DNA of 14,155 nucleotides, taken from Chlamydiia bacterium (lineage in GTDB: Bacteria > Chlamydiota > Chlamydiia > Chlamydiales > Parachlamydiaceae). Every line of letters starts with the position of its first letter. The first letter of the stretch is position 1. Positions 1 through 14,155 of this stretch are shown here, one piece after another. The notes under the pieces were generated by a model. It was not told the origin of the DNA. It did not search any database and saw only the letters and a list, made by a program, of their open reading frames with translations. The translations under genes were made by a program, and so were the position numbers. The stretch spans positions 1-14,155 of the forward strand of contig JBBSJT010000063.1 of the NCBI GenBank assembly GCA_038257035.1, read 5' to 3'.

Positions 1-27
1 AGAAGTCAACTTCCCTTTATCAGACAT

Positions 28-54
28 TATACTCATGCTACTTGAAATTAGAAA
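28..54. mobile_element. MITE-like terminal repeat next to P1
   Basis: TATACTCATGCTACTTG (28-44) matches TATACTGATGCTACTTG (13651-13667) at 16/17 positions. The latter is the left TIR of the 13649-13853 element. Confidence 0.65.
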
Positions 55-56
55 GT

Positions 57-174
57 TTTAGATTTTTTACCAGTGAGACAGTGAGTAAGACATGAGATCA
101 GTGAGAAGTTGTGAATTCATTGCCTCTCACTGTCCTCATGTCTTTCTCACTGTCTCACTGGTAAAAAATCTAAA
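57..174. repeat. Long intergenic palindrome P1 (AGTGAG-type REPIN/MITE-like element)
   Basis: Arms 57-106 and 125-174 are reverse complements at 47/50 positions, with an 18-nt spacer. The arm starts TTTAGATTTTTTACCAGTGAGACAGTGAG. It is closely related to the element at 5318-5425. Confidence 0.92.
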
Positions 175-210
175 TGTGTATATCTGGAATCGGTATGTTT
201 ATTTTTGGGC

Positions 211-249
211 AAAAAAAAGCCCGGGAATCTTTAAAAAGATGCCGGGCTT
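211..249 (-). terminator. Rho-independent terminator of the NTT gene
   Basis: Stem AAGCCCGG..ATCTTT / AAAGAT.CCGGGCTT. The A8 run at 211-218 is the U-tract on the minus strand, and the hairpin lies about 20 nt past the stop at 269. Confidence 0.85.
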
Positions 250-268
250 ATAAGAGACAACTAACTGC

Positions 269-1867
269 TTATGAAGCAGCAGCTGCTTCTTGGTTTTGTG
301 CATTTTCAGCAGGAGCTGCTTTAGCTTCTGCTTTCTTCTCTGTAAGAGCTTTAAAGCGTGTGCTTAAGCCGAATACTGAGAGGATCCACAAGAATACAAC
401 ACCAACTGCAATTGGAGCAATAATTGGTACTAGCTGATAAAGTGCGCTTCCTGAAAACAGTGTGAGCAAGCCCATCTGAATGTAAGAACCTGCAGATTTA
501 CCACCACGACCGCCGATTACGTCAACAGCAGCTTTACCTTTAACCTTTAATTCAGGATCTAAAGGAATGTAGGCCATTTCTTTTGTCGGATCAAAAAGAG
601 AGTATTTAACAGCTTTACCGAATGCGTTAACAAACAGGCCAAGACCTACTGCGTAAACGATCAGTTCTTTGTTAATAACACCTTCCTTAATCGCTGTAAT
701 AATAGACATTCCTTCAGGAAGTAAAGTATTGTTGTAATAAATTACGCCAAAGAATGCTAGGATTCCTGTGATTAAAACAGCAGGTGTAATAAGAGCACAT
801 GTACGCCAGCTAAGAGCACGTAGAAGATTGCTTCCAACTAACATTAAGATAATAGCAATACCACCTGTTACAGTCGATAGTCCGCCCATAACTTTGTTGT
901 ATTCAAGTTCTGTTGGGTAGGCAATCTTAATTTGACCTTTCCAAACTGCTTCAAATAGGTTAATTGACATACCGTAAGCTAATACAAGCATTGCAATCAA
1001 ACCAAGGTATGGAGATTGAAGGATCAGTTTAAAACTGTCAGCCATTGAAAGTTTAGCTTTCTTCTTCTTAGATTCGCCCATAGCTTCCGGGTTGTAATAA
1101 CGAAGATCTGTTAAGACATAACGGTTCATGTAGTAAAATGTTGAGAAAAGAACGATACCGGCAGCGATAACAAATGCCATCAACCACTGTAACATAAGAC
1201 CTGTAGCAGCTGAACGCTCTAGACCCATTCCATCAATTGTATGCGCAACATACATAATTCCAGGACCTGAAAGCAATAGGCCAAAGTTACCTAAAAATCC
1301 GAACATTCCGTAGAATCTACGAGCTTCGACAACCGGTGTGATTGCATTAGCAAATTGCCAGAAAAGTAGAGAAAGAATAGCACTTCCCCAAAGTTCAGAT
1401 AAAATGTAAAACAGTGTATATGTCCAGTTACCAACAAGCGGAATGATCCAAGTAAGTGTTGGATAAAGGGCTTGGTAGTGGTGAATTGTTTCTAAGCTCA
1501 TGTGAAGAGAGTCAACAAATGGATAGATACAGTAAGGATATAATCCAAAGAACACTAAGAAAGGTAACGCAGTTGCGTAAAATAGACCTTCGCGATTAAA
1601 CAAGTTAGCAGCTTTAGTGTATAGAATCATAAACAACACTGCTGATGCTGTTACGCCAATTCCCTTAGCAAAAGATAAACTTTCTGCGCCGGCACCCGGA
1701 GCATTAACCAAGATCGCATCTTTAGTGTCGCGCAATACTGTATAAATAAACAGAATGCAAAACATCATGATGCCCATTGGCAAGAATTTCTTAATTTCGT
1801 AAGAGTGTATTGGCCACACTAGCTTTCGCCAACCAGTAAACTCTTGATGATCAATTTTTTGTGACAT
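269..1867 (-). CDS. npt1: Nucleotide transporter of the NTT/TLC family (ATP/ADP translocase-like)
   Basis: 532-aa multi-pass membrane protein with NTT motifs WPIHxxExKKFLPM, LRDTKD, ELWGS, FWQFAN, RFY, KYSLFDPTKEMAYIPLD and KGKAAVDV. It occupies the CT065 position next to ddbA and ytg. The family is certain, but the npt1 symbol rests on synteny. Confidence 0.9.
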   Translation of the reverse strand: MSQKIDHQEFTGWRKLVWPIHSYEIKKFLPMGIMMFCILFIYTVLRDTKDAILVNAPGAGAESLSFAKGIGVTASAVLFMILYTKAANLFNREGLFYATALPFLVFFGLYPYCIYPFVDSLHMSLETIHHYQALYPTLTWIIPLVGNWTYTLFYILSELWGSAILSLLFWQFANAITPVVEARRFYGMFGFLGNFGLLLSGPGIMYVAHTIDGMGLERSAATGLMLQWLMAFVIAAGIVLFSTFYYMNRYVLTDLRYYNPEAMGESKKKKAKLSMADSFKLILQSPYLGLIAMLVLAYGMSINLFEAVWKGQIKIAYPTELEYNKVMGGLSTVTGGIAIILMLVGSNLLRALSWRTCALITPAVLITGILAFFGVIYYNNTLLPEGMSIITAIKEGVINKELIVYAVGLGLFVNAFGKAVKYSLFDPTKEMAYIPLDPELKVKGKAAVDVIGGRGGKSAGSYIQMGLLTLFSGSALYQLVPIIAPIAVGVVFLWILSVFGLSTRFKALTEKKAEAKAAPAENAQNQEAAAAS

Positions 1868-1960
1868 AAAAATTTCCTTATATTTTGTTCTAGACTAAAA
1901 AAATCTTTTATATGATCTGATAAGTCATAGTCGGCGACTTTATCGCCTTTTAATGCTTTA

Positions 1961-1989
1961 ATTATCACACAAACAAGAATAATTGTCAA
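1961..1989 (-). promoter_or_regulatory. Sigma66/sigma70-type promoter for the NTT gene
   Basis: On the minus strand: TTGACA (1989-1984), 17-nt spacer, GATAAT (1966-1961), with an extended -10 TG motif (TGTGATAAT). Confidence 0.7.
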
Positions 1990-2121
1990 TTAAAAATTGA
2001 AAAACTGAAGATCCGGTGTAACCAATTCTCTCTGAAAAACACCCTAATAATTTTAACCAAAGAGTTGTTAATTTTAAAAAAAATAATCTTACTATTTTGA
2101 AAGGGTAAAAGAAGAGAGGAT

Positions 2122-2174
2122 AAAAAAAAAAAGAAGCTTTAGGGCGAAAGTTACTTTCGCCCGTAAAAGCTTCT
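2122..2174 (-). terminator. Rho-independent terminator of the ddbA-like gene
   Basis: Stem AGAAGCTTT.GGGCGAAAGT / ACTTTCGCCC..AAAAGCTTCT, with an 11-nt A run (U-tract on the minus strand), just past the stop at 2197. Confidence 0.85.
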
Positions 2175-2196
2175 AAAAGATAAGACTTAATATAAA

Positions 2197-2709
2197 TTAA
2201 GCAACAACCGGTGTAGATGCCAATGCATTAGCGCTATTGACGATTTCTACATATGACTGCCATAGATCATGATCAGTTTGTCCGCGTCTGATTGAAGAAA
2301 GAAGCTCTTTCTTAACTGAACGTAGATCTTTTTTCGGTGTGAGCTTACGGATCATTTCGCGATCGCCTGCATTTCTTGCAATGAAAAGCATTCTATCAAT
2401 ATCTTGCTTCGTGAATAAAATTTGATCACGACGCTTACGTGAACCGCGAGCAGCTCTTGGCTTAGGAGAAACATTAGTCGGCTTATCAACATTAACGATA
2501 TATTTGTTGATCATAGCTTGTAATTTTTCAGGCTCTTCAGTTCTCATTTTTCTCATTGTAAAATGGTGAATGTAGCCAACTCCTGTAGGGGAAGGAATAT
2601 AACGGCAAATGTCGTTTTCTTTCTTTCCGCTAACTTTTTTTGTTGCATTAGCAATTAGACTGTCTAATTGTTTTAAGTCGATTTTTGTTTTTTCTTGTGT
2701 TGAGCTCAT
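2197..2709 (-). CDS. ddbA: Chlamydiae-specific basic protein, CT066/DdbA-like (putative DNA-binding)
   Basis: 170 aa with KENDICRYIP, GYIHHFT and PKPRAARGSRKRRD, which I recognise from the chlamydial CT066 family. It lies between the NTT gene and the ytg operon, as in Chlamydia. Confidence 0.78.
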   Translation of the reverse strand: MSSTQEKTKIDLKQLDSLIANATKKVSGKKENDICRYIPSPTGVGYIHHFTMRKMRTEEPEKLQAMINKYIVNVDKPTNVSPKPRAARGSRKRRDQILFTKQDIDRMLFIARNAGDREMIRKLTPKKDLRSVKKELLSSIRRGQTDHDLWQSYVEIVNSANALASTPVVA

Positions 2710-2820
2710 TGGTCTAACCTACCTATATTTTTGGTTTACTTCTATTTTAATAATATTCAAAAAGATTATGCGTCTTTTAACAACACCTTTTTTTAATCGA
2801 ATCTTAGTTTACTAATGTCA

Positions 2821-2849
2821 ATTATATGGATATATCTTTTTTTTTGCAA
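2821..2849 (-). promoter_or_regulatory. Sigma66-type promoter for the ddbA-like gene
   Basis: On the minus strand: TTGCAA (2849-2844), 17-nt spacer, TATAAT (2826-2821). Confidence 0.6.
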
Positions 2850-3108
2850 CATAAAAATAATTAAGTATCTATATTTTTATAAAAGTTATGTATGCCTATC
2901 TACTAAATTTCATTATCAAACTATTAAAACAGAGTTTTCAATCTTGAATCAGACAATTATCGGATCCATATCAATCATTTAAAATTCTCATAAAAAGACC
3001 CTTTCCATAGCTATCCTTTTAGAATTAAACAAATTGCCATAATTATCCAATTATACGCAACATATATTCGCCTTTTTTCTGATCAATTGAAAATCGTTAG
3101 AGTATACA

Positions 3109-3137
3109 TTGATGAGAATATGAGAATAAGATAGAAT
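3109..3137 (+). promoter_or_regulatory. Putative sigma66-type promoter for the mrp-DUF971-ytg operon
   Basis: TTGATG (3109-3114), 17-nt spacer, TAGAAT (3132-3137). A GAGGA RBS at 3157-3161 precedes the ATG at 3167. Confidence 0.55.
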
Positions 3138-3166
3138 TAGAGACAATTAATATAATGAGGAATTAA

Positions 3167-4024
3167 ATGCCTTTGAACATGTACGAAAAAATTGAACCAG
3201 TTTCAAAGATCAAACATATAATAGGAATTGCTGCAGGAAAAGGCGGAGTTGGAAAATCAACAATAACTGTTAATTTAGCATTAAGTTTAAAAAAAATGGG
3301 TTATTCAGTTGCCGTATTAGATACTGATATTTACGGGCCGTCAGTCAGAATGATGCTTCCCGAGGAGCGGATGCCTGTACAAAAAGGTGAAACAATTATT
3401 CCTGCCCTTTGCAAGGGAATTCCTATGATTTCAATGGCTTATTTTAAACCCGACAATCAAGCATCTGTTGTAAGAGCTCCTATTGCAAATGGTATTATTA
3501 AACAATTTTTGAAAAATGTGCAATGGGGAGAGCTTGATTATCTTCTGATCGATTTTCCTCCGGGAACAGGAGACATTCAACTGACTCTTTCCCAAGAAGC
3601 TAATTTAACAGGAGTTGTCATGGTTACAACGCCACAAAATGTGGCGATGATGGATGTTAGAAAAGCGATGAATATGTTTGAACAGGTACGTATCCCGATT
3701 ATTGGGATAGTTGAAAATATGAGTTATTTCTTGGGAGAAAACAGTGAAGAAAAAGTTTACATTTTTGGGAAGGGCGGTGGTGAACTTTTAAGTCGCGAAT
3801 CAGGGGTGCCGTTTCTTGGCAGCGTCCCTCTTCATCCAAAAATTTGTGAGTGCGGCGATCTTGGTAAATCTTTATTTGAAGAAGATCAATTACCTCTTAA
3901 TAACAACTTTAGGGAAATTACAAATCAGATGATTCTCCATGTTAATCTTTTAAAAGATCAATCGAAAGAGCCACTAAAAAGCTTCAATTTAAAATGGAAG
4001 GAAATGTCAAACAATGAATCATAA
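3167..4024 (+). CDS. mrp: Mrp/ApbC/NBP35-family P-loop NTPase (Fe-S cluster carrier)
   Basis: Deviant Walker A GKGGVGKST, plus DTDIYGPS, WGELDYLLIDFPPGTGD, VTTPQ, GIVENMS and IFGKGG, with a good RBS. Confidence 0.93.
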   Translation: MPLNMYEKIEPVSKIKHIIGIAAGKGGVGKSTITVNLALSLKKMGYSVAVLDTDIYGPSVRMMLPEERMPVQKGETIIPALCKGIPMISMAYFKPDNQASVVRAPIANGIIKQFLKNVQWGELDYLLIDFPPGTGDIQLTLSQEANLTGVVMVTTPQNVAMMDVRKAMNMFEQVRIPIIGIVENMSYFLGENSEEKVYIFGKGGGELLSRESGVPFLGSVPLHPKICECGDLGKSLFEEDQLPLNNNFREITNQMILHVNLLKDQSKEPLKSFNLKWKEMSNNES

Positions 4025-4310
4025 AGCTTTTATTGTAAAAAAAATTGATCAGCTAGATAATTATACATTTTCGATAGAATGGGCGGATGGTGTTGTGACA
4101 AAATATCGTTTAAGCGATCTTCAAAGGGCATGTCCATGTGCAAACTGTACGGATGAAAAGTCAGTCACAGCTAAAAAAGACGATCTTAAAAATGATGTTT
4201 CCGCTGTCAATATTACAAGTGTTGGTAGATATGCATTACGCATTCAATTCACAAAAGGCTGCTCGCAAGGAATTTTTGGGTTTGATATGTTAAGAGGGAC
4301 AGCTACATGA
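4014..4310 (+). CDS. DUF971 / gamma-butyrobetaine hydroxylase N-terminal-like protein
   Basis: 98 aa with IEWADG, LQRACPCANC, VGRYALRIQF and GIFGFDML, typical of DUF971. It overlaps mrp by 11 nt and ytgA by 4 nt (ATGA). Confidence 0.85.
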   Translation: MNHKAFIVKKIDQLDNYTFSIEWADGVVTKYRLSDLQRACPCANCTDEKSVTAKKDDLKNDVSAVNITSVGRYALRIQFTKGCSQGIFGFDMLRGTAT

Positions 4311-5284
4311 AGAAATTGATTTTTCTAATGCTGTTGTTTGTTGTTTCCTGCTCAACAGATAGTTCAAGAAGCCACCAGGAGAAGGAGAGAGAATGGAACA
4401 ATAAAAATGGAAAAATCAAAGTGTTATCTTCCATTGCAATGATTAACGAGCTTGTTAAAGAAATTGGTGGCGAATATATAGACAGCAATACTTTAATCAA
4501 GGGAGATCTTGATCCTCATTCCTATCAGTTGGTTAAAGGCGATGATGAAAAACTTAAAAAGGCTGACCTGATTTTTTTTAATGGTCTTGGACTTGAGCAT
4601 GGTCCTAGCTTACAAAAATATCTTTACAACAGTGAAAAAGCTATTGCCCTTGGTAACGAAATCGGTTCTGCAAATCCATCCTTAATTTTACAACAAAACG
4701 GTCAAATCGATCCCCACATTTGGATGGATATTGCCCTTTTTGCAAAATCGATCCCCTTTATTGTTAAAGCTCTTAGTGAAAAAGATCCTGCACATCAGAG
4801 TTACTATGAAAATCGGGCAATTGCATTACAAAACGAGCTGTTGCAAAATGATCAAGAAATTCGTGATTTACTTTTACAAATCCCTGAAAATAAGCGTTAT
4901 CTTGTAACAAGTCACGATGCTTTTAATTATTTTACAAGAACATATCTTGCGACTGAGGCCGAAAAAACCAACAATGATTGGCAAAAACGATTTGCAGCTC
5001 CTGAAGGTTTAGCACCTGAAAGCCAGATTAGTGCATCGGATATTCAATTTATTATTGATTACTTAGCAAAATATCAAATTCATGTTGTGTTTCCTGAATC
5101 TAATGTGAGTCAAGATTCCATTCGTAAAATTGTTCTTGCGGGAAAGGAAAAAGGACTTGAATTAACGATTGCAACAGATTATCTTTATGGCGATGCCATG
5201 GGATCAGAGGGGAGCGATGGAGACACTTATCTGAAAATGATTAGACATAATGCTGCCGTCATTGAAAAGTATTTAAAAAAATAG
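4307..5284 (+). CDS. ytgA: Metal (Fe/Mn/Zn) ABC transporter substrate-binding lipoprotein, TroA/YtgA
   Basis: Signal peptide with lipobox VVSC, and cluster A-I motifs DPHSY, NGLGLEH, DPHIWMD, VTSHDAFNYF and YGD. Confidence 0.93.
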   Translation: MKKLIFLMLLFVVSCSTDSSRSHQEKEREWNNKNGKIKVLSSIAMINELVKEIGGEYIDSNTLIKGDLDPHSYQLVKGDDEKLKKADLIFFNGLGLEHGPSLQKYLYNSEKAIALGNEIGSANPSLILQQNGQIDPHIWMDIALFAKSIPFIVKALSEKDPAHQSYYENRAIALQNELLQNDQEIRDLLLQIPENKRYLVTSHDAFNYFTRTYLATEAEKTNNDWQKRFAAPEGLAPESQISASDIQFIIDYLAKYQIHVVFPESNVSQDSIRKIVLAGKEKGLELTIATDYLYGDAMGSEGSDGDTYLKMIRHNAAVIEKYLKK

Positions 5285-5317
5285 GCTATTAACACTACGG
5301 TAAGGCAAAAGTTTCAG

Positions 5318-5425
5318 ATTTTTTACCAGTGAGTTGTTAAGAAAGACATGAGATCAGTGAGGGGTCTTGAAAGCCTAACTCCTCACTGACCTCATGTCTT
5401 TCTTAACGACTCACTGGTAAAAAAT
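5318..5425. repeat. Long intergenic palindrome P2 (AGTGAG-type) between ytgA and ytgB
   Basis: Arms 5318-5362 and 5381-5425 are complementary at 43/45 positions, with an 18-nt spacer. It shares ATTTTTTACCAGTGAG and AAGACATGAGATCAGTGAG with P1. Confidence 0.92.
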
Positions 5426-5477
5426 ATTATTGATATAATCAAATGAGATCGGCATAGAATTTTCAGAATGGAGTAAC

Positions 5478-6278
5478 GTGAAAAGTATGAAAGAGAAAAG
5501 TGAGACTATGAATAACCCGGTTTTTGAAGTGCATCAATTATCTGTAAATTACGATAAAACCCCTGTTCTTTTTGATATTTCTCTAAAAGTGCCAAACGGT
5601 AAACTTGTTGGTGTAATAGGCCCCAATGGTGCCGGGAAAAGTACCTTTATAAAAGCTGCCTTAGGGATTGTCAAACCAATCAGCGGACGTGTTTTGTTTT
5701 TTGACGAACCTTTGAAAAACGTGCAAAAACGTATCGCCTATGTGCCTCAAAGAGAGTCTGTGGACTGGGATTTTCCAATAACAGTCAAAGACCTTGTCTT
5801 AATGGGGCGCTATGGTCGTCTTGGCCTTTTTCGTTATCCAAAAGCGTCCGACTTAAAAGATTGCGCTCATTACTTAAATGTTGTCGGCATGACAGCCTAT
5901 GCAGATAGACAAATCAGTCAACTTAGCGGAGGACAGCAGCAGCGTGCCTTTATAGCGCGCGCACTTCTTCAAGAAGCTGATATTTATTTTATGGATGAGC
6001 CATTTTCCGGTATTGATATGGCAACTGAAAAAGTGATCATGGATCTTTTAAGAGAGTTAAAATCTAAAGGCAAAACAGTTTTTGTCGTTCATCACGATTT
6101 AAATACTGTTGAGAATTATTTTGATTATATGATTATGCTAAATATGCGTCTTATTGCTTGCGGATCCACAAATGAAGTTTATAATGCTGAAAACATTAAT
6201 GAAACTTATGGAAAACAACATAGTCTTTTTGATGAGGCCCAAAAGCTCATTCATGAGAAATCAAGAGGAATTAATTAA
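5478..6278 (+). CDS. ytgB: Metal ABC transporter ATP-binding protein, TroB/YtgB
   Basis: Walker A GPNGAGKST, YVPQR, signature LSGGQQQR, Walker B YFMDEP and H-loop VHHDL. The start may be the GTG at 5478 (GGAG just upstream) or the ATG at 5487 or 5508. Confidence 0.94.
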   Translation: MKSMKEKSETMNNPVFEVHQLSVNYDKTPVLFDISLKVPNGKLVGVIGPNGAGKSTFIKAALGIVKPISGRVLFFDEPLKNVQKRIAYVPQRESVDWDFPITVKDLVLMGRYGRLGLFRYPKASDLKDCAHYLNVVGMTAYADRQISQLSGGQQQRAFIARALLQEADIYFMDEPFSGIDMATEKVIMDLLRELKSKGKTVFVVHHDLNTVENYFDYMIMLNMRLIACGSTNEVYNAENINETYGKQHSLFDEAQKLIHEKSRGIN

Positions 6279-7651
6279 TGGGGAATAACTTAATCGGTTT
6301 CTCATCTCCTTTAATTTATTTTACTGATGCAGTTTTAAGGGCACCAACGATCGGTTGCATGCTGATGTGCTTAACGGCAGCTTTAGTTGGCGTTATTGTT
6401 TTTTTAAAAAAGCAGTCCCTCCTTGGAGAATCACTTTCTCATGCAGCATATCCAGGTGTCGTTATTGGTGTTCTAATTGCAGGAGTTTTTGGTTTAAATG
6501 AAGAGAATCAAAGCCTGACCGCATTTTTGATAATGGCTTCTGCTTTTTTAAGTGCCTTAGCCGGTCTTTACTGCATCTACTACCTTGTTAATAAAATGAA
6601 GATCAGAACCGATTCTGCCCTTTGTTTTATTCTATCCTCCTTTTTTGGAGTCGGCCTTACATTAGCAAGTCAAGTGCAATTTTCATACACTGCACTTTAT
6701 AGACAAATACAGACCTATATTTATGGTCAGGCAGCAACCATGACCGATGTGCATTCTTATATTTATGGATTTTTTTCATTCATTATTATTATTGTCATCA
6801 TTCTTTTTTATAAAGACATTCAGGTAATGACCTTTGATACAGATTATGCAAAGTCCATCGGTATCAACGTCAGGTCGATCAATACCCTTATTTTTATTTT
6901 AATAACCTTGGCTGTTGTTATGGGGATTCGCTCTGTAGGTGTTATTTTGATGTCAGCAATGTTAATAGCCCCGGCTGTTGCTGCAAGGCAATACACCAAT
7001 AAGTTGTATTTCATGTTCCCTCTAGCAGGTTTTTTTGGTCTTATTGCAGGGTTTTTAGGGAATTATTTTTCAGTTGAGATTAATTCAATTTTAGCAAGGA
7101 AATTTCCTGGAGAGCGTTTGATATTGCCAACAGGGCCTATGATTGTCATGGTAGCTTCCATTATTTGCTTATTGTCTCTTTGTTTTGCTCCTGAAAGAGG
7201 CTGGCTTCTTCGCTTGAGCCGCATGAGGCGCTTTCGAAGCCGCTGTATTTCAGAAAACTTACTAAAAACAATTTGGCGCTACTGCCACGCAGAAAATAAT
7301 GACTTGACCATTTCTTTTAACGAAATTGAAAAGTATCAAAGTTTTTCACCAATTTATCTGCGTTATTTGCTTTTTAAGATGTCTTACAATGGATTTCTTG
7401 AAAAATTAAATGGTGATCAATACAAGCTAACTAAAATGGGAAAATTAAGAGCTGAAAAAATCATTCGTCTTCATCGTTTATGGGAAGTCTACCTTGCGGG
7501 GTATTTGGGGATTGGTGTCGAGCGAGTACATAGAAATGCCGAAGAGATGGAACACATTATAACGCCTGAACTTGAAAGGGAACTTACATTTTTGCTCAAA
7601 GACCCAAAACAAGATCCGCACCATCAACCCATACCCCCACAAACCCTATGA
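6278..7651 (+). CDS. ytgC: Metal ABC permease fused to a C-terminal DtxR/MntR-type repressor (YtgC-YtgR)
   Basis: N-terminal ABC-3 permease (SLLGESLSHAAYPG, GQAAT, VGVILMSAMLIAPA). C-terminal DtxR domain (ENLLKTIW, LTKMG, IIRLHRLWEVYL, VHRNAEEMEH, DPHHQPIP). The start overlaps the ytgB stop (TAATG). Confidence 0.93.
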   Translation: MGNNLIGFSSPLIYFTDAVLRAPTIGCMLMCLTAALVGVIVFLKKQSLLGESLSHAAYPGVVIGVLIAGVFGLNEENQSLTAFLIMASAFLSALAGLYCIYYLVNKMKIRTDSALCFILSSFFGVGLTLASQVQFSYTALYRQIQTYIYGQAATMTDVHSYIYGFFSFIIIIVIILFYKDIQVMTFDTDYAKSIGINVRSINTLIFILITLAVVMGIRSVGVILMSAMLIAPAVAARQYTNKLYFMFPLAGFFGLIAGFLGNYFSVEINSILARKFPGERLILPTGPMIVMVASIICLLSLCFAPERGWLLRLSRMRRFRSRCISENLLKTIWRYCHAENNDLTISFNEIEKYQSFSPIYLRYLLFKMSYNGFLEKLNGDQYKLTKMGKLRAEKIIRLHRLWEVYLAGYLGIGVERVHRNAEEMEHIITPELERELTFLLKDPKQDPHHQPIPPQTL

Positions 7652-7677
7652 GCTACAACATACATAGAGTTATAAGG

Positions 7678-7707
7678 GATTTTTCTACCGCGAAGAATGC
7701 GAAGAAT
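7678..7707. repeat. Orphan half-copy of the P3 arm
   Basis: GATTTTTCTACCGCGAAGAATGCGAAGAA closely matches GATTTTTTTACCGCGAAGAACGCGAAGAA starting at 7727. Confidence 0.75.
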
Positions 7708-7730
7708 GGGTTATAGCGTTAGTGTAGATT

Positions 7731-7926
7731 TTTTTACCGCGAAGAACGCGAAGAAGCGCAAGCTTCGCTGCGGGAAGAAACGCGAAGGAAGCGCGCTTAA
7801 AAGCGCGAAAGAACAATCGAAAGAGTTCTTGCGCTTTTTCTTCTTTTTTTTCGCAGCAAAGCTGCGCTTCTTCGCGTCTCTTCCCGCAGCGAAGCTTGCG
7901 CTTCTTCGCGGTCTTCGCGGTAAAAA
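7731..7926. repeat. Long GC-rich intergenic palindrome P3 (GCGAAG-type) between ytgC and ytgD
   Basis: Arms 7731-7794 and 7864-7926 are complementary except for 2 mismatches and 1 gap. The arm begins TTTTTACCGCGAAGAACGCGAAG. Confidence 0.92.
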
Positions 7927-7997
7927 GTCCTCCTTAGCGGTTGTATTAATTTTTTTTGAGAGGAGTTGAATGTGTGTACTAACAAGAGAGCTGGCAA

Positions 7998-8972
7998 ATG
8001 ATTGACAATCCCTATTCGGGCAATACTTTTTTTGAATTTTTTTATACCCTTTTTATTCGATTATTTGAATTTATAACAGGAAATTTGCCCTTTGAAAATT
8101 TAGCCACAGATGAAATACAAATGATTGTTTTAGCGGGTGTTTCAGCTTCATCTGCCATGGTTGGAACATTTCTTGTTTTAAGAAAAATGACCATGCTTGC
8201 AAATTCCTTGTCTCATACTATATTGCTTGGGATCGTCATCGCATTTTTAATGACTAAAAATAGCGTTCTTCCAAATGCAAACGGCTACGTGGAACCGATT
8301 AATATTTTTGCCATGATGTTTGCTTCCTTAATTATGGGTATTGTCACCACATTTTTAACTGAATTTTTAACAAAGACCGTAAAACTACAAGAAGATGCCA
8401 GCACAGGGCTTGTTTTTACCGGTCTTTTTGCCCTAGGTATTCTTTTAGTTACTCTTTTAACAAGAAATGCCCATATCGGCACGGAAGTTGTAATGGGCAA
8501 TGTGGATGCCTTGCATCTTGATGATTGCAAATTCATTTTTATTATTTTGGGAATCAATACATTTCTTTTTTTGTTATTTTTTAAAGAATTTAAAATCACA
8601 ACGTTTGATCCAGGACTTTCAAGGGCAATAGGTATTTCAACTATTTTCTTTAACTATCTTTTAATGGCCCAAGTATCTTTAACAACCATTGGGGCCTTTC
8701 GAGCAGTCGGCGTTTTAATGGTCTTAAGCTTTATTACAGGGCCACCACTCATTGCAAGGTTGTTGACAGATCATTTAAAATCAATGATTACCTATTCGAT
8801 TATTATAGGGGTAAGTGCATCCATAATTGGCGTTGCCATATCCCGTCATTTCTTGTCAGTGCATGGAATGGCTCTTTCAACTTCAGGCCTCGTTGTCACA
8901 ACGATTCTACTTCTTTTTATAGGAGTTGCCCTTTATTCAAATTTTTCAAAAAAAAACCCATTAAGGACTTAA
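7998..8972 (+). CDS. ytgD: Metal ABC transporter permease, TroD/YtgD
   Basis: ABC-3 permease motifs GTFLVLRKMTMLANSLSHTILLG, EDASTGLVFT, FDPGL and GAFRAVGVLMV. Confidence 0.92.
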   Translation: MIDNPYSGNTFFEFFYTLFIRLFEFITGNLPFENLATDEIQMIVLAGVSASSAMVGTFLVLRKMTMLANSLSHTILLGIVIAFLMTKNSVLPNANGYVEPINIFAMMFASLIMGIVTTFLTEFLTKTVKLQEDASTGLVFTGLFALGILLVTLLTRNAHIGTEVVMGNVDALHLDDCKFIFIILGINTFLFLLFFKEFKITTFDPGLSRAIGISTIFFNYLLMAQVSLTTIGAFRAVGVLMVLSFITGPPLIARLLTDHLKSMITYSIIIGVSASIIGVAISRHFLSVHGMALSTSGLVVTTILLLFIGVALYSNFSKKNPLRT

Positions 8973-8977
8973 GAAAA

Positions 8978-9838
8978 GTGATCCGCTATTTACCCGAATT
9001 TATTCGTAAATCTGATTATATTCGCTGGGAGATACCGTCAGAGGATTCGATTTCTGATCTTGAGACTGAAATCGCTGATATGGTGGCCATCAATTTTTTT
9101 TCTGAAATTTTGACAGATGATATTATTGTTCATGAAATTTTTTCGCGTTTAAAATGCAAAGAACTGCTCAATTTTGGTCTAGTGGATAAAAAAATCCAAC
9201 ATCTGGCAAATGATCCGCTAGTGATGAAAGATAAAATTTATTTGGAAAAAGTTTTTAGTCCTCTTGATTGGCAACACTTTTTTGGTTTTGGCATTGAGGA
9301 TGACACCCTTGCAAGAAATCAATTGTCGAATAACATCGTTGATCTTTTTAAAGAATTTCCACATCAATTTAATAATATCACTTGGATACCGGAAGGGATC
9401 AGCATTAATTTATTTGGTGATCTTATAAAAAAATATTATCGTAACAACAAAGATGGTTATGCGAGTATTGACGAAAAAATTCAGAGTGAATTTGGTAAAA
9501 TTTGCACCTTAAAAGGTCAATGGATATCACTTAACCCATTGGGCCGCATTATTAATCCAGAAATCACCAAAAAATTTAAAGAGATAAATTTTAATAAAAA
9601 TCCAAATATTTTTGAAGTTGTTGTTTTGAAATTTTCAGATTGGTTCAAGTTTGAACGATATATTTTACCCAATAATCGTAAAGTTATTATAGAGTATGAT
9701 AAATTTCAAATAAACGTTCATATAAACAGCTTAGGAATTAATTTGCTAACGGCGCCCCTTCAAACGAATCGGCTCATGTTTATACCTAAAGGTGTTGGTG
9801 GCATTAGAAGACAAGGAGACCAGCCCTTTTTGTATTAA
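8978..9838 (+). CDS. F-box-like domain protein, putative secreted effector (family distinct from the four downstream paralogs)
   Basis: FFSEILTDDIIVHEIFSRLKCKELLNFGLVDKKIQHLANDP fits the F-box pattern LP.EI...IFS.L...EL.....V.K.W..L, without the proline. The start is uncertain (GTG 8978 or ATG 9080). Confidence 0.6.
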   Translation: MIRYLPEFIRKSDYIRWEIPSEDSISDLETEIADMVAINFFSEILTDDIIVHEIFSRLKCKELLNFGLVDKKIQHLANDPLVMKDKIYLEKVFSPLDWQHFFGFGIEDDTLARNQLSNNIVDLFKEFPHQFNNITWIPEGISINLFGDLIKKYYRNNKDGYASIDEKIQSEFGKICTLKGQWISLNPLGRIINPEITKKFKEINFNKNPNIFEVVVLKFSDWFKFERYILPNNRKVIIEYDKFQINVHINSLGINLLTAPLQTNRLMFIPKGVGGIRRQGDQPFLY

Positions 9839-9938
9839 AACTTCTTTTAATATCCCATATTCCAAATTATTCCTAATTTTTTTATTTACTTTAAAAAAAA
9901 ATTATAATATATTAATTTCATTAAAAAAGGATTTTTAT

Positions 9939-10853
9939 ATGATTATTTATAATAGTATTGCTAATTTGATTTTTTCGGAATCTAAAGATTCCAACGATCG
10001 AAAAATTGAAGGTAACTTCTTTACTTTGCTTCCCATCAATGTTTTTGAAAAGATCTTAAGCTATTTATCTCTTGAAGATTTAAGATTATTTAAATTAACA
10101 AGCAGTAATACTCCACCTATTGTGAAGGCGGCAATCACTCAAATTTTTTTAGATAATGTTCAAAATGAGTTAACCGATCTCTATGATGTAAAAATTAGTT
10201 TGAAAAGTTTAAGTATTTATGAAAGATATCATCAGGCACTTGAAAAAACAAAAAAATTTAAAAAGTGTACTTATAAAGGGTTTCAAGCCAAAAGAAGTGC
10301 AATCTCTGCTCTGTTTGAGAATCGCTCAATAGAATATACCTTGGAAAAATTAAAATCATTTAATCTTCAAGACGATAAATTTTTGCTTCCGGAAATTTTT
10401 AAAAATAGAATCCATCACTATGACTCTAAGGTTACTTGGAGAAGAACAGATGAGCAAAATGATAAAAATCTTATCTTATTTTTAAAAGTCTTAAGAAAAA
10501 ATCAATCCGATTTAAGAAAGTTTACTTTGGAAGTTTTCGACACACCTTTAAGTGAAAAAGTGTTGAATGCATTTGTAAGGGCAATTTTTGAGAATCATTC
10601 TTTTAAAACACTCAATGTGAGTATTCAAAATTGGAATGCTATTCATTTAAATTCAATCCTTGAAGCAGTTAAACAAAATAAGAATATCGAGAGATGTTTA
10701 ATTTCAGAAATAAATTATGACCAAAATCTTGCAAATGGCTGGTGGTGGCAACGTCAGGGCCAAGAAAAACATCTTGCTGAATTAAATCGTATCGTTCAAA
10801 ATCATTTGAAAGACGTTTCTTACAATCAAGGAAACTGGCATTGGAAAAAATGA
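9939..10853 (+). CDS. F-box-like protein with predicted LRR/RNI-like C-terminus, paralog 1
   Basis: F-box pattern FTLLPINVFEKILSYLSLEDLRLFKLTS. The C-terminus (AIFENHSFKTLNV..WN..HL..ILEAVKQNKNI) is shared with the next three ORFs. The start is placed at ATG 9939 (AAAGGA RBS) rather than 9792. Confidence 0.72.
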   Translation: MIIYNSIANLIFSESKDSNDRKIEGNFFTLLPINVFEKILSYLSLEDLRLFKLTSSNTPPIVKAAITQIFLDNVQNELTDLYDVKISLKSLSIYERYHQALEKTKKFKKCTYKGFQAKRSAISALFENRSIEYTLEKLKSFNLQDDKFLLPEIFKNRIHHYDSKVTWRRTDEQNDKNLILFLKVLRKNQSDLRKFTLEVFDTPLSEKVLNAFVRAIFENHSFKTLNVSIQNWNAIHLNSILEAVKQNKNIERCLISEINYDQNLANGWWWQRQGQEKHLAELNRIVQNHLKDVSYNQGNWHWKK

Positions 10854-10872
10854 TTTAACAATCAAGAGGTGT

Positions 10873-11709
10873 ATGATTATTAGCCATCCATGTAACGAGA
10901 AACTATCCAATTATCTTTTGGATCTACCCTCTGAGGTGTTAAATGAAATTGAAAACAACTTGTCCATTAAAGATCAACGTTTCCTACATTCCACAAATTG
11001 CAAAATACGCTATTTAAAAATTCAAGAATTCTTGGAAAAGCTAGACCACGATCTATTTAAAAGGCAAGTTTGGGAAGGTGGATATTCAACACCTTTACCT
11101 GCATCGTATTTTAAATTTTTAAGCGAAGCAAAAAGCTTAGAAAATGGCTCTGAAGATAGATGTCAGGCTTTAAGGAATGCAATTTGTTCGGTCTTTAAAG
11201 GCTCTCGAATGGTTTGTTTACAAAATTTATTTTGCCTAAATCCACTTTATAACGATAAACCATTGAGTATTCAACTGCTTACAAATCATAGTGATGTAGA
11301 ATCCTTGCGTTGGTATGAGAATGATAAAGCGAATGGTAAATTTGTTGTTATAATTTATAAATTGTTAGCAGAAAATCAATTAAATCTTAAAAAAGTGAAA
11401 TACATCCAGGAATTTGAAATTCCAACGGATGAAAGAATCATCAAATTGTTTGTCACTGCAATCAGCAATAATCTATCTGTTAATGAAGTTATCTTAAGTG
11501 GGGCACTTTGGAATCTTGAACAATTGAAAGGTATTTTGGAAGCGATCAACAAAAATGAACGCATTGGCCAAGTCTCTATTGTGGAGAATGATCCCGTAAC
11601 ACCTAGTCAAATAGAGAAGGTAAGAGATGTTATCCTTAATACACTTAATAAGGCTTGGGTCTATAAATCCTCATCTTTTGATGGATTCTCTTGGACATAT
11701 AGTAGATAA
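10873..11709 (+). CDS. F-box-like protein with predicted LRR/RNI-like C-terminus, paralog 2
   Basis: LLDLPSEVLNEIENNLSIKDQRFLHSTN, with a GAGGT RBS. Highly similar to 11740-12564. Confidence 0.75.
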   Translation: MIISHPCNEKLSNYLLDLPSEVLNEIENNLSIKDQRFLHSTNCKIRYLKIQEFLEKLDHDLFKRQVWEGGYSTPLPASYFKFLSEAKSLENGSEDRCQALRNAICSVFKGSRMVCLQNLFCLNPLYNDKPLSIQLLTNHSDVESLRWYENDKANGKFVVIIYKLLAENQLNLKKVKYIQEFEIPTDERIIKLFVTAISNNLSVNEVILSGALWNLEQLKGILEAINKNERIGQVSIVENDPVTPSQIEKVRDVILNTLNKAWVYKSSSFDGFSWTYSR

Positions 11710-11739
11710 ATCAAAATTTCAAAGAACTAAAAGATTATT

Positions 11740-12564
11740 ATGTTAGTCGATCTTTCAACAAATCTTCATTTTGTGAATTTCCCTGAAGAAGTTTTTTTCG
11801 AAATAGGAAGGCATTTATCTATCAAAGATCAGCGTTCTTTTCATTCGACAAATTATAAAATACGCTATTTAAAAATCCTAGAACATTTGGAAAAGCTAGA
11901 CCGTGATCTAACTAAAAATAAATTTTATAATTATGGATATCAAACTCCTTTACCTAAGACCTATCACACTTTTATAGCCGAAGCAAAAAGTTTAAAAAAT
12001 GGCTCTGAAGAAAGATGTCAAGCTTTAAGAAATGCGATCTGCTCCGTTTTTAAAGGTTTTAAAATGGTTTGTTTACAAAACACATTTTGTTGGTATTCAT
12101 TTTTTGAAGATAAATCTTTGACCATTCAGTTGCTTTCGAATTACAATGATGAAGAGAGTCTTGATTGGTGTGAGAACGAAGAACCTAATGGTAAATTTGT
12201 TATCACAATTTATAGATTATTAGCAGAAAATCAGTTAAATCTTAAAAAAGTGACGTACATCCAAGATTATGAAAATCCAAAGGATGAAAAGATCATCAAA
12301 TTATTTGTAAGTGTAATCAGCAATAATCTGTCTATTAATCAGGTTGATCTCTTTGGTAGCTTTTGGAATCTTGAACATTTGAGTGTAATTGTGGAAGCGA
12401 TCAACAAAAATGAACGCATTGGCCAAGTTTCTATTGAAGAGGGTGATCACTTAACACGTGATGGATTAGGAAAGGTATATGATTTTATTTATAATATTCT
12501 TAAAAATAAATGGATCTTTAAACCCTCCACCATTAATAGAGGACATTGGACATTCAATAGATAG
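11740..12564 (+). CDS. F-box-like protein with predicted LRR/RNI-like C-terminus, paralog 3
   Basis: FVNFPEEVFFEIGRHLSIKDQRSFHSTN. It shares identical blocks with paralog 2 (RCQALRNAICSVFKG, LLAENQLNLKKV, EAINKNERIGQVSI). Confidence 0.75.
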   Translation: MLVDLSTNLHFVNFPEEVFFEIGRHLSIKDQRSFHSTNYKIRYLKILEHLEKLDRDLTKNKFYNYGYQTPLPKTYHTFIAEAKSLKNGSEERCQALRNAICSVFKGFKMVCLQNTFCWYSFFEDKSLTIQLLSNYNDEESLDWCENEEPNGKFVITIYRLLAENQLNLKKVTYIQDYENPKDEKIIKLFVSVISNNLSINQVDLFGSFWNLEHLSVIVEAINKNERIGQVSIEEGDHLTRDGLGKVYDFIYNILKNKWIFKPSTINRGHWTFNR

Positions 12565-12636
12565 AAATCTAGGTGATCTACCAGATGATCTAAAAGATTG
12601 TAATTGAATTCTGATATGCGACACTAACTCGAGAAA

Positions 12637-12712
12637 TTCGCTAATTTGGAGTGCTAGAGACTTACAAATCGACGAGTCGATTTGTAAGTCTCTAGCACTC
12701 CAAATTAGCGAA
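12637..12712. repeat. Perfect 37-bp inverted repeat with 2-nt spacer (P4)
   Basis: TTCGCTAATTTGGAGTGCTAGAGACTTACAAATCGAC (12637-12673), then GA, then the exact reverse complement (12676-12712). Confidence 0.95.
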
Positions 12713-12746
12713 ATTTATTAATATAAATTTTAAGATTGGAGATCAT

Positions 12747-13637
12747 ATGTTATCGAGTCATTCAACTCATTTTTTGCAAATAGATCCTACAAATTATGTA
12801 TCAACCATTCCCGATGAAGTTTTTTATGAAATTGGCAGTTATTTAGGAATTAGAGATTTACGCTCCTTTTATCAAACTGATCGCAAAATTCAGTTAAGTG
12901 TGGCATCCCTAATCCCTTTTAAAGTTCAAGAGCATTTGGAAATTTTAGAAATGGAACTTTTAGCTGCAAGTATCATAAAGGTTCAATTAAAAAATCCTAA
13001 GACTTTTAAACAGTTTTATACGTGTAAATCCAAAGTGAGTACCTCCAACAATGGCTCTTTGGAGCGTTCTCAAGCATTACGCGATGTGATATGCTCTCTT
13101 TTTGATAATATTAGTTTAAACTCCTTTTTTAATTTAATATGTAATCACCCTTTATCTGAAGATAAATTATTAGCAATGAGTATAATCAAAAATATAAGAA
13201 CCAATCAATCGATTTTGTGGAAAGACAAAAAAGACAATAAAATTTTTATTTTAATTTTGGAATTGTTAAAAAAAAATGAACTTGATCTTGAAGAAATTCA
13301 ATATCAGAAATTCAATAATTCCTTGGATAAAACCATTCTTGAATCAATGGTGAATGCTATTAATGAAAATCAATCAATTGTAAGTATTGATCTTGGTGTT
13401 GAAAAATGGAATCTTATACATTTGGAGCAACTTTTAGTAGCAATAAAAAATAATCAACACATAAAAGAAATCAGCATTTCAGAATATAATTATTCAAATA
13501 GGGTTTTTGATAAAAAAACACCTGCTCCTGAAGATATTGAGCAATTGAAAAAGATAAAAGAATTAATCATTCATCATTTTGGCAATGCTGCAATCGACAA
13601 TACTCTTGCACAAGGCTACTGGCACTGGACCCGCTAA
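12747..13637 (+). CDS. F-box-like protein with predicted LRR/RNI-like C-terminus, paralog 4
   Basis: VSTIPDEVFYEIGSYLGIRDLRSFYQTD, plus NGSLERSQALRDVICSLF and AINENQSI..WNLIHLEQLL shared with the paralogs. GGAG RBS. Confidence 0.75.
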   Translation: MLSSHSTHFLQIDPTNYVSTIPDEVFYEIGSYLGIRDLRSFYQTDRKIQLSVASLIPFKVQEHLEILEMELLAASIIKVQLKNPKTFKQFYTCKSKVSTSNNGSLERSQALRDVICSLFDNISLNSFFNLICNHPLSEDKLLAMSIIKNIRTNQSILWKDKKDNKIFILILELLKKNELDLEEIQYQKFNNSLDKTILESMVNAINENQSIVSIDLGVEKWNLIHLEQLLVAIKNNQHIKEISISEYNYSNRVFDKKTPAPEDIEQLKKIKELIIHHFGNAAIDNTLAQGYWHWTR

Positions 13638-13648
13638 CAAAACTACAA

Positions 13649-13853
13649 TATATACTGATGCTACTTGGAAGTGAAAACTTCTGATGTTCAAGTTTACCGC
13701 TAAAGAATGACCTTTTTAACGCAAAGGCGCAAAGATTAAAAGACCCTTTAAGCATGCGAAGAGTTCTTTTTATTCTTTGCCTCTTTGCGCCTTTGCGTTA
13801 AAAAAAAGGTAAAAAAAGTTCATATTTTCATTTTCAAGTAGAACCAGTATATA
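13649..13853. mobile_element. MITE-like element with outer TIRs and an inner GCAAAG-type palindrome (P5)
   Basis: Left end TATATACTGATGCTACTTGGAAGTGAAAA. The reverse complement of the right end is TATATACTGGTTCTACTTGAAAATGAAAA. TA at both ends is a possible target duplication. The inner perfect 23-bp IR is TTTTTAACGCAAAGGCGCAAAGA (13713-13735 / 13782-13804). No transposase is present. Confidence 0.78.
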
Positions 13854-13867
13854 ACTAGAAGTTGCTA

Positions 13868-14035
13868 GTCGCGGATGCGACGAAAGCATGTAGCCACGGG
13901 TGTCAACCCGTGGTCAAATAAAATATAAAAAATAAGCTGCGTTAGCTGCGACAGAGTCACAACTATACTTCATTTTTCTGTCGCCACCTACGTGGCTTAT
14001 TTTTTGAAAAAGGCATTTAACCACGGGTTGACACC
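13868..14035. repeat. GTAG-type REP doublet (REPIN-like, P6), right copy truncated
   Basis: GTAG (13890-13893) is followed by the hairpin CCACGGGT-GTCA-ACCCGTGG (13894-13913). An inverted copy ACCACGGGTTGACACC lies at 14020-14035. There is an inner imperfect IR (13927-13955 / 13977-14005) and a small hairpin GTCGC-GGAT-GCGAC at 13868-13881. Confidence 0.8.
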
Positions 14036-14155
14036 CATATGCGTTAAGCTAAGCAACTTTCAGCCCTAAGTTGCTGGTTTCCAACTTGTAATAACCTCGA
14101 CCTGCATTAATACTTTGTCTTAATGTTGGTCGCTTTCTTTTATCTTTACAAAGTC
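14036..14155 (-). mobile_element. End of an IS4-family (IS231-like) insertion sequence, partial
   Basis: The terminus CATATGCGTTAAGCTAAG resembles the IS231-type TIR pattern (CAT....AA.TAAG). The preceding 11 bp, GGGTTGACACC, fit the IS231A target consensus GGG(N)5CCC with one mismatch. A minus-strand open frame ends inside this TIR. Confidence 0.62.
14049..14153 (-). CDS. C-terminal fragment of a probable IS4-family transposase (runs off the window)
   Basis: Open frame ...LCKDKRKRPTLRQSINAGRGYYKLETSNLGLKVA* with TAG at 14051-14049 inside the putative TIR. Only 34 residues are visible and no catalytic motif can be seen. Confidence 0.5.
   Translation of the reverse strand, partial: LCKDKRKRPTLRQSINAGRGYYKLETSNLGLKVA

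Follow-up and report, generated by a model that had tools for sequence, protein, structure and literature searches.

Palindromic repeats of a Parachlamydiaceae genome as probable gene-less shells of a small GxxExxY nuclease cassette

The described systems closest to the elements studied here are the REPIN-RAYT pairs, in which doublets of repetitive extragenic palindromic (REP) sequences go together with a REP-associated Y1/HUH transposase, and which were reportedly set out by Nunvar in 2010 and by Bertels and Rainey in 2011. Further parallels are offered by the miniature inverted-repeat transposable elements (MITEs) derived from insertion sequences (IS) and by the 23S rRNA intervening sequences with a small open reading frame (ORF) of the PF05635 family, which are located in rRNA and are cut out of the RNA. 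In Geobacter metallireducens, paired tandem octa- and heptanucleotide repeats are annotated as 'predicted global regulator binding sites' (PMC2700814). Here we analysed a stretch of 14,155 nucleotides (contig JBBSJT010000063.1, positions 1 to 14,155 of the forward strand, assembly GCA_038257035.1) from a Chlamydiia bacterium of the Parachlamydiaceae, and this whole stretch is called the window hereafter. An earlier note on this DNA had described four long palindromes in it (P1, P2, P3 and inner P5), built on one architecture with interchangeable core hexamers, and had taken them for a non-autonomous REPIN-like family of several types, any of which might have a nuclease or transposase of its own. 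As judged from sequence, the palindromes are very probably shells of GxxExxY cassettes, which would bear out that proposal; the broader reading, in which they are gene-less, non-autonomous MITE- or REPIN-like copies of a small nuclease cassette and are served by its nuclease, we regard as probable.

The full cassette measures 420-790 bp and consists of two inverted arms around a GxxExxY gene (PD-(D/E)XK fold, PF13366/TIGR04256). An arm begins with an A/T run and (C)A(A/C)C, followed by two to four tandem units, 8-10 nt apart, on one hexamer (GCGAAG, GCAAAG, GCAGAG, AGTGAG, CAGGAT and others), and often by an inner mini-hairpin; a shell folds into a long hairpin because its two arms are joined without the gene. 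Like REPIN-RAYT repeats, the shells are short, hairpin-forming, intergenic, multi-copy inverted doublets, nuclease genes are few per genome (two here) and are flanked by the same repeat in inverted orientation, and several repeat types coexist in one genome, each with its own gene. They differ in that their enzyme has a PD-(D/E)XK and not a HUH/Y1 fold, that their arms are the unit arrays just described and not a 20-40-nt REP with GTAG, and that no Y1 gene has shell arms within 1.2 kb, the true RAYT/REP sets of the genome being separate families. With IS-derived MITEs they have in common small size, non-autonomy, A/T-rich flanks, patchy strain-specific insertion, nested insertions, and terminal inverted repeats present in both shells and gene-bearing form; unlike such MITEs, the whole shell is near-palindromic and not the tips alone, no DDE transposase partner was found and no target-site duplication was seen on inspection by eye. 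The 23S rRNA intervening sequences likewise hold a small gene in the loop of a long inverted-repeat stem, and one PF05635 gene of the present assembly is bracketed in this manner, but they carry another cargo family and no such unit-array arms are shown for them. The Geobacter repeats resemble the shells in being paired arrays, one on either strand, each of about four tandem units of 7-8 nt, in many intergenic copies, whereas their units differ (GTTGCTYN, MTYCTGA) and they are read as regulator sites, with no link to GxxExxY drawn in the part of the source available (PMC2700814).

Gene-bearing counterparts speak for the cassette reading. The PF13366 (PDDEXK_3) profile gave two matches in the source genome (G000; 2,366,241 nt in 210 contigs, 36% GC, 95.8% complete), on contigs C7 and C17, and both are intact TIGR04256 GxxExxY ORFs. 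On C7 the gene (1145-1489) lies between arms reading T7 ACC GCGAAG... and ...CTTCGCGGT A7; this element (C7:930-1584) is of the type of P3 and has its arms in common with P3, and these arms reach blastn depths of up to 216 and 173 in the genome, while the gene between them is unique (depth 0). The C17 gene (14847-15200) has a decayed GCAAAG arm upstream and, 22 nt downstream, a GCAAAG-type palindrome (52-nt arms, 98%) of the type of P5, the two having GCAAAGGCGCAAAGATTAAAA and their inner part in common. A scan of metagenome contigs for the AGTGAG terminus gave 106 stretches, of which 80 were examined, and one of these loci (L190) bears a PF13366 gene (E 1.7e-42) between AGTGAG arms whose first 25 nt, GATTTTTTACCAGTGAGACAGTGAG, are identical to the start of P1; since this gene is GC-rich, its host is unrelated. 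In a genome of the same family (G005), another PF13366 gene (L113, E 9e-39) lies between arms that hold TTACAGGATATGCAGGATCGC, a terminus of the AGGATA type. Gene-bearing counterparts are therefore known for all four types counted in the window, namely GCGAAG (C7), GCAAAG (C17), AGTGAG (L190) and AGGATA (L113), and the C7, L190 and L113 genes have no inverted repeats of their own inside the arms.

Furthermore, we surveyed the best 80 of 589 confirmed GxxExxY loci, drawn from one-genome-per-species contigs of many phyla, 73 of which had flanks of sufficient length. At 44 of these 73 loci the gene was enclosed by an inverted repeat that scored at least 15, compared with 0 of 135 controls displaced by ±800 nt, and at a score of at least 13 the counts were 50 of 73 and 2 of 135. 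The arms start 10-100 nt from the gene and are arrays of CACAGAG, CACGGAG, CGCAAAG, CGCAGAG, CACGAAG and similar words behind an A/T-rich run and ACC, AAC or CACC; the combination of (A/C)(A/C)C and NCNRRG occurred within the first 30 nt at 30 of the 44 loci scoring at least 15. Among the relatives together with G000, 15 of 21 testable loci reached the same score. The association of such motifs with GxxExxY genes, which the earlier note had suggested, is thus real, in this genome as well as across phyla. Proteins whose cassettes have the same unit type are also slightly more alike than others (0.530 vs 0.497, a difference reached by 3 of 500 shuffles).

An inverted-repeat search of the window, with direct inspection of each sequence, recovered all four palindromes, along with a solo arm and an outer frame:

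57-174: P1, AGTGAG-type gene-less shell; arms 57-115 and 116-174, 59 nt, 88% complementary
5318-5425: P2, AGTGAG-type shell; arms 5318-5365 and 5378-5425, 48 nt, 94% complementary
7682-7706: solo partial GCGAAG-type left arm upstream of P3, TTTCTACCGCGAAGAATGCGAAGAA; depth about 23
7731-7926 (shell 7727-7926): P3, GCGAAG-type shell; arms 7731-7823 and 7834-7926, 93 nt, 80% complementary
13649-13853: outer frame around P5, TATATACTG.TGCTACTTGGAAGTGAAAA; arms 13649-13677 and 13825-13853, 86%; blastn depth 10-18
13713-13804: inner P5, GCAAAG-type shell; arms 13713-13743 and 13774-13804, 31 nt, 90% complementary

The common layout of a T run, A(C/A)C and a recurring hexamer could be read directly in the sequence, as T6 ACC AGTGAG..C AGTGAG in P1, on the same hexamer AGTGAG in P2, as T7 ACC GCGAAG AAC GCGAAG in P3 and as T5 AAC GCAAAG GC GCAAAG in P5, and none of the four has GTAG at its ends, in agreement with the earlier note. 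When the window was compared with the genome by blastn, sharp repeat borders appeared at 63-168, 5319-5424, 7727-7926 and 13719-13805, with a depth of about 100 matches for P1, about 170 for P3 and about 48 for P5. The repeat core of P1 is 63-168 (T6 ACC ... GGT A6), and its left flank (37-56) holds the outer-frame motif CTACTTGAAA (contig C63, position 37, + strand). P2 has the variant TCGTTAAG in both arms and so belongs to an TCGTTAAG subfamily of the AGTGAG type, of which the genome also has one hybrid copy; it sits between a ZnuA-like and an ABC ATPase gene, and the repeated flank extends over 5307-5475. Both arms of P3 are of the 'B' variant with shared flanks at 7711-7726 and 7927-7941, and the solo arm at 7682-7706 pairs with the P3 segment 7902-7926 over 25 nt (88%). 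P3 lies between the gene of an ABC-3 permease fused to an iron-dependent-repressor C-terminal domain (6278-7651), which we take to have the layout of the chlamydial YtgC-YtgR, and a second ABC-3 permease gene (7998-8972), upstream of which the P3 composite leaves GAGAGGAG. Folded as single-stranded DNA, P1, P2 and P5 reached -47.8, -46.0 and -29.4 kcal/mol (z -13.2, -16.1 and -7.9), and for each of them none of 200 shuffles folded as well. Rfam gave no match in the window at the gathering score, no tRNA was found in it, and the Pfam search of its 14 ORFs showed no GxxExxY, Y1 or DDE gene, in agreement with the earlier note, which had seen no GxxExxY gene in the window.

The earlier note had asked whether the copies are few, and the genome holds hundreds of them. 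We counted 772 inverted pairs (arms of at least 20 nt, at least 80% complementarity), or 571 once merged, and about 530 element ends of at least eight hexamer types in 2.37 Mb, i.e. about 265 element equivalents at two ends each, whereas reversed-motif controls gave 0-2, far below what was found. By terminal word, the types comprise 184 ends for GCGAAG, 111 for AGGATA, 75 for AGTGAG, 46+22 for GCAAAG, 40+4 for GCAGAG, 28 for ACCGAG, 16 for ACAGAG and 6 for ACGAAG, the reversed controls of GCGAAG, AGTGAG and GCAAAG being 0. According to a crude ORF map, 140 of the 150 elements with both ends paired are intergenic, and convergent spacers are over-represented (41 of 124 vs 250 of 1702 in the background). 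The hexamers are interchangeable in a literal sense, as GCGAAG and GCAGAG elements carry the same inner mini-hairpin AAGCGCGCT(T)AAAGCGCGA behind different units. Nesting in loops is frequent, with GCAAAG-type elements inside GCGAAG- and ACCGAG-type loops and RAYT-type REPs inside an AGGATA loop, and the loops of nested elements are too variable to fix exact insertion boundaries. The outer frame (CTACTTGAAAGTAAAAAG...) represents a second, MITE-like repeat family with 28 motif matches genome-wide; the cores that follow its motif are AGTGAG, GCGAAG, GCAGAG, GCAAAG or AGGATA (at least five types), both P1 and P5 are framed, and near-identical copies of the P5 composite occur on C69, C84 and C97. 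The flanks directly outside the T run are type-specific (e.g. ..TGA/CGA before the T run), and the repeat therefore extends beyond the T run. Between ends paired 250-3000 nt apart there were only nested repeats, a GxxExxY gene, or a 361-aa ORF with a separate element on either side. A further palindrome type with the same terminal logic and the unit GGACAA/GGACTA was noticed genome-wide (C10:1706-1877, C20:9943-10131); it starts with GATTTTAAAGGACAAAAAGGAC..., words such as AAAGGACAAAAA open 26 palindrome arms, and no gene was traced to this type.

Comparison with relatives showed that both same-genus genomes lack an element at the sites of P2 and P3, a check that had been proposed for this family. 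The ZnuA-ABC spacer that holds P2 is 193 nt long here but only about 23 nt in G001 and about 31 nt in G002, and the permease genes on either side of P3 are about 350 nt apart here, 3 nt apart in G002 and overlapping in G001. In contigs of three other metagenomes (runs X2-X4) we found a relative at about 5% divergence that shows multi-copy peaks over P1, P3 and P5 and whose alignment ends at 5286 and 7651, i.e. at gene ends. The GCGAAG ends (TTTTACCGCGAAG) number 183 in G000 vs 0-1 in each of 30 relatives. The AGGATA terminus is patchy, being present in 12 of 31 genomes and in neither same-genus genome, and its counts are highest in G000 (118), followed by G005 (75), the holder of the AGGATA-armed gene. 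PF13366 matches occur in 11 of the 12 genomes with AGGATA ends vs 8 of the 19 without, which supports the cassette link weakly because the relatives are not independent. In G002 a 3' remnant of a C17-like gene lies at a locus syntenic with C76, not C17, of G000. By these comparisons the shells are dispensable, lineage-specific and recent. None of the outcomes that the earlier note had named as refuting its proposal came about.

The GxxExxY protein has about 120 aa, and in 29 aligned sequences G32, G34, E37, Y40, D76, E86, K88, Q100, N117, F118 and R129 are invariant, which includes D...ExK, the signature triad of PD-(D/E)XK enzymes. The structure of the protein was predicted confidently (pLDDT 91.2), and a Foldseek search against the PDB gave generic PD-(D/E)XK neighbours only (Cas4, lambda exonuclease/RecB-type, Hjc; best E 1.9e-3), while a sequence search of the PDB gave no match for the nuclease. 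The one survey found gives the function of PF13366 as 'Unknown' (PMC3424549). We propose that the nuclease would bind arrays built of the units of its own arm type, and would cut at or near the element ends or at the base of the extruded hairpin, whereupon host replication or repair would copy or re-insert the element. A cognate nuclease, resident now or in the past, would move the shells in trans, and the landing sites would be A/T-rich spacers and the centres of other palindromes, the latter accounting for the nests of elements. That the GxxExxY nuclease is what moves the shells is suggested by the association, and we put the chances for and against it as evenly balanced.

Several observations weigh against the cassette reading or against parts of it. 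In the survey, 29 of the 73 loci are without arms of score at least 15. Clustering of the unit type on the protein tree was looked for and was absent, with 27 changes among 56 labelled rows on a quick tree against 27-30 in the first five of 200 label shuffles, although so small a tree is without power. In G000 no cognate gene of the AGTGAG or AGGATA type was found despite 75 and 111 ends, at 95.8% completeness, and the copies of these two types are more alike (0.87 and 0.84) than those of the two types with a resident gene (0.77 and 0.77). Other cargo exists too. The ACAGAG/ACCGAG-type shell at C60:4192-4810 (L251) contains a nested GCAAAG-type element and, instead of the nuclease gene, a 69-aa ORF with a weak HTH_3 match below the cut-off (E 0.0053). 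The sole 23S_rRNA_IVP (PF05635) gene of the assembly (C166:521-802, L103) lies within short inverted repeats of AAATTCCAAA-like words (19 nt at 84% and 13 nt at 92%), on a contig that could stem from another organism than the main one. No match across the junction was obtained when the joined 35+35-nt flanks of up to 150 elements were compared with the genome for paralogous empty sites, and inspection of 41 gene-bearing elements by eye showed no target-site duplication. The genome G029 (same order, 1.9 Mb) has 64 PF13366 matches (e.g. at L244-L250), many of them identical C-terminal fragments, and we rejected these as proof of cassette mobility, as its full copies lie inside a repeat of more than 1.2 kb that ends about 70 nt past an CTCTGTGG-type arm. 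Finally, PD-(D/E)XK enzymes act by hydrolysis of DNA and no rejoining activity is known for them, so that the complete chemistry of transposition is missing.

The earlier note had also stressed that the arms of each element match almost perfectly while the copies differ strongly, and had called for a mechanism that homogenises arms. The first statement holds between types and fails within them. Arm identity within one element and between elements was 0.917 and 0.869 for AGTGAG, 0.806 and 0.769 for GCGAAG, 0.780 and 0.774 for GCAAAG and 0.927 and 0.842 for AGGATA, and, by type, the partner arm was the closest arm in just 7 of 26, 4 of 81, 0 of 19 and 5 of 24 elements. Since same-type copies are 77-87% alike against 78-93% within an element, and the arms of P3 itself match at only 80%, the contrast is mostly one between types; within GCGAAG elements arm identity is lowered because many of them mix two arm variants. 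Homogenisation of arms is hence dispensable for explaining within- and between-element identity, and we set it aside as a necessary mechanism. Paired double changes lend it weak support all the same. In the AGTGAG type they number 42 cells in 19 of 51 pairs (shuffle mean 23.5, reached by 0 of 200; slid registers 5-18), in the AGGATA type 20 cells in 15 of 62 pairs (shuffle mean 11.6, reached by 1 of 200), both counts being inflated by shared descent, and the spacer position directly behind the first AGTGAG unit can be any of the four bases, mostly with the matching partner. As the double changes exceed the shuffles, some symmetrising force exists, which could be selection on pairing, arm-to-arm copying, or a need for identical binding sites on both arms.

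Among the rival explanations, the one that survives best holds that the hairpin shells are primary and are moved by another enzyme, by replication slippage or by fold-back, and that GxxExxY genes are mere passengers which, like other small genes, land in or are captured by their loops as preferred landing sites. We consider it unlikely. It would suit the common nesting in loops, the other cargo in similar brackets on C60 and C166, the abundance of AGTGAG and AGGATA elements without a cognate gene in G000 and the unclustered unit types on the protein tree. It does not fit with arms that hug the gene at 10-100 nt across phyla but never embrace the shifted controls at the score of 15, with genes that have no inverted repeats of their own inside the arms, or with the same terminus of A/T run, ACC and unit around a high-GC gene in the unrelated host of L190, and the small excess of protein identity within unit types also speaks against it.

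It is considerably less probable that the shells are ordinary REPINs or MITEs moved by a Y1 (RAYT/IS200-like) or another IS transposase, even though the palindromes are intergenic, multi-copy, hairpin-forming and REPIN-like and G000 has nine PF01797 matches. When we looked at which genes are flanked by which repeat type, GxxExxY genes were found in hexamer-type arms, whereas the RAYT genes of the genome go with different REP-like palindromes. Two Y1 genes with nearby palindromes carry different, GTAG-containing repeats, the Y1_Tnp (PF01797) gene at C29:8800-9911 being flanked by REP-like ACCGGTGGTTGCA...CTATGTAGTACC and the gene at C105:2229-2744 by GCAGGCTGTAGGCCTGC; the other five Y1 loci have no palindrome within 1.2 kb, no hexamer type ends in GTAG, and no IS transposase was found between hexamer-type arms paired 250-3000 nt apart in G000. 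C29 and C105 show a classical RAYT/REPIN-style organisation alongside the hexamer-type shells. The window also has a separate repeat family at 13862-14036, at a depth of about 20-40. It contains an internal GTAG and nested inverted repeats (13898-13919/14015-14036 and 13927-13955/13977-14005) and may be part of a RAYT/REP set of the genome.

Least probable of all, we think, are hairpins that serve the host as mRNA stabilisers or processing sites, as terminators or as regulator binding-site arrays, for although convergent spacers are enriched, compensatory double changes exceed shuffles and the Geobacter arrays are read as regulator sites (PMC2700814), the P2 and P3 sites are empty in same-genus genomes with genes 3-31 nt apart or overlapping, GCGAAG ends are nearly confined to this genome, at least eight types coexist, and the T run 5' and A run 3' of the stem on both strands do not make an intrinsic terminator, none of the 14 terminator-like sites of the window falling in the four palindromes.

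Returning to the cassette reading, we put forward tentatively, and at somewhat less than even chances, that GxxExxY genes with unit-array arms form a new class of mobile element, either a 'hairpin transposon' driven by a PD-(D/E)XK enzyme or a REPIN-like commensal. The nuclease would read the tandem hexamer units, so that each arm type would have its own enzyme specificity, and would act on the extruded or single-stranded hairpin, where arm-to-arm copying would keep the arms symmetric. The genome would then hold at least eight specificity types, of which two have kept a resident enzyme, and the unit swaps between GCGAAG and GCAGAG around AAGCGCGCT.AAAGCGCGA would record changes of specificity.

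Besides the palindromes, the window carries genes for a TLC ATP/ADP transporter, the cluster of ZnuA, ABC, ABC-3-DtxR-fusion and ABC-3 genes, and several ORFs without a family, a content that suggests an environmental chlamydia. The four ORFs at 8978-12564 have no Pfam family, and the 296-aa ORF that follows them (12747-13637) has a sub-threshold match (E 4.8e-4; 20.5 bits, with the cut-off at 25.3) to NleG, a family of type III secretion system effectors. Between two family-less ORFs lies a single-copy, near-perfect palindrome (12634-12715; 40-nt arms, 98%), outside any repeat family, of which an allele without the central 37 nt (12655 to 12693) occurs in contigs of metagenome runs X3 and X4.

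Our literature searches found no description of a GxxExxY gene placed between such arms and nothing on palindromic repetitive elements of Parachlamydiaceae, and in a paper that names GxxExxY the term is a mere domain label; the nuclease cassettes look like small, widespread, selfish and so far undescribed DNA elements. GxxExxY/PDDEXK_3 is a large protein family spread over phyla. If its members act as the enzymes of hairpin repeats, this would add a new enzymatic route to REPIN- and MITE-like repeats, would account for many unexplained tandem-unit palindromes of bacterial genomes, and would provide small nucleases that nature has already matched to short recognition units which can be swapped. 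In the present organism the shells sit within operons that, in relatives, have overlapping genes or gaps of 3-31 nt, and they are probably one cause of its fragmented genome assembly.

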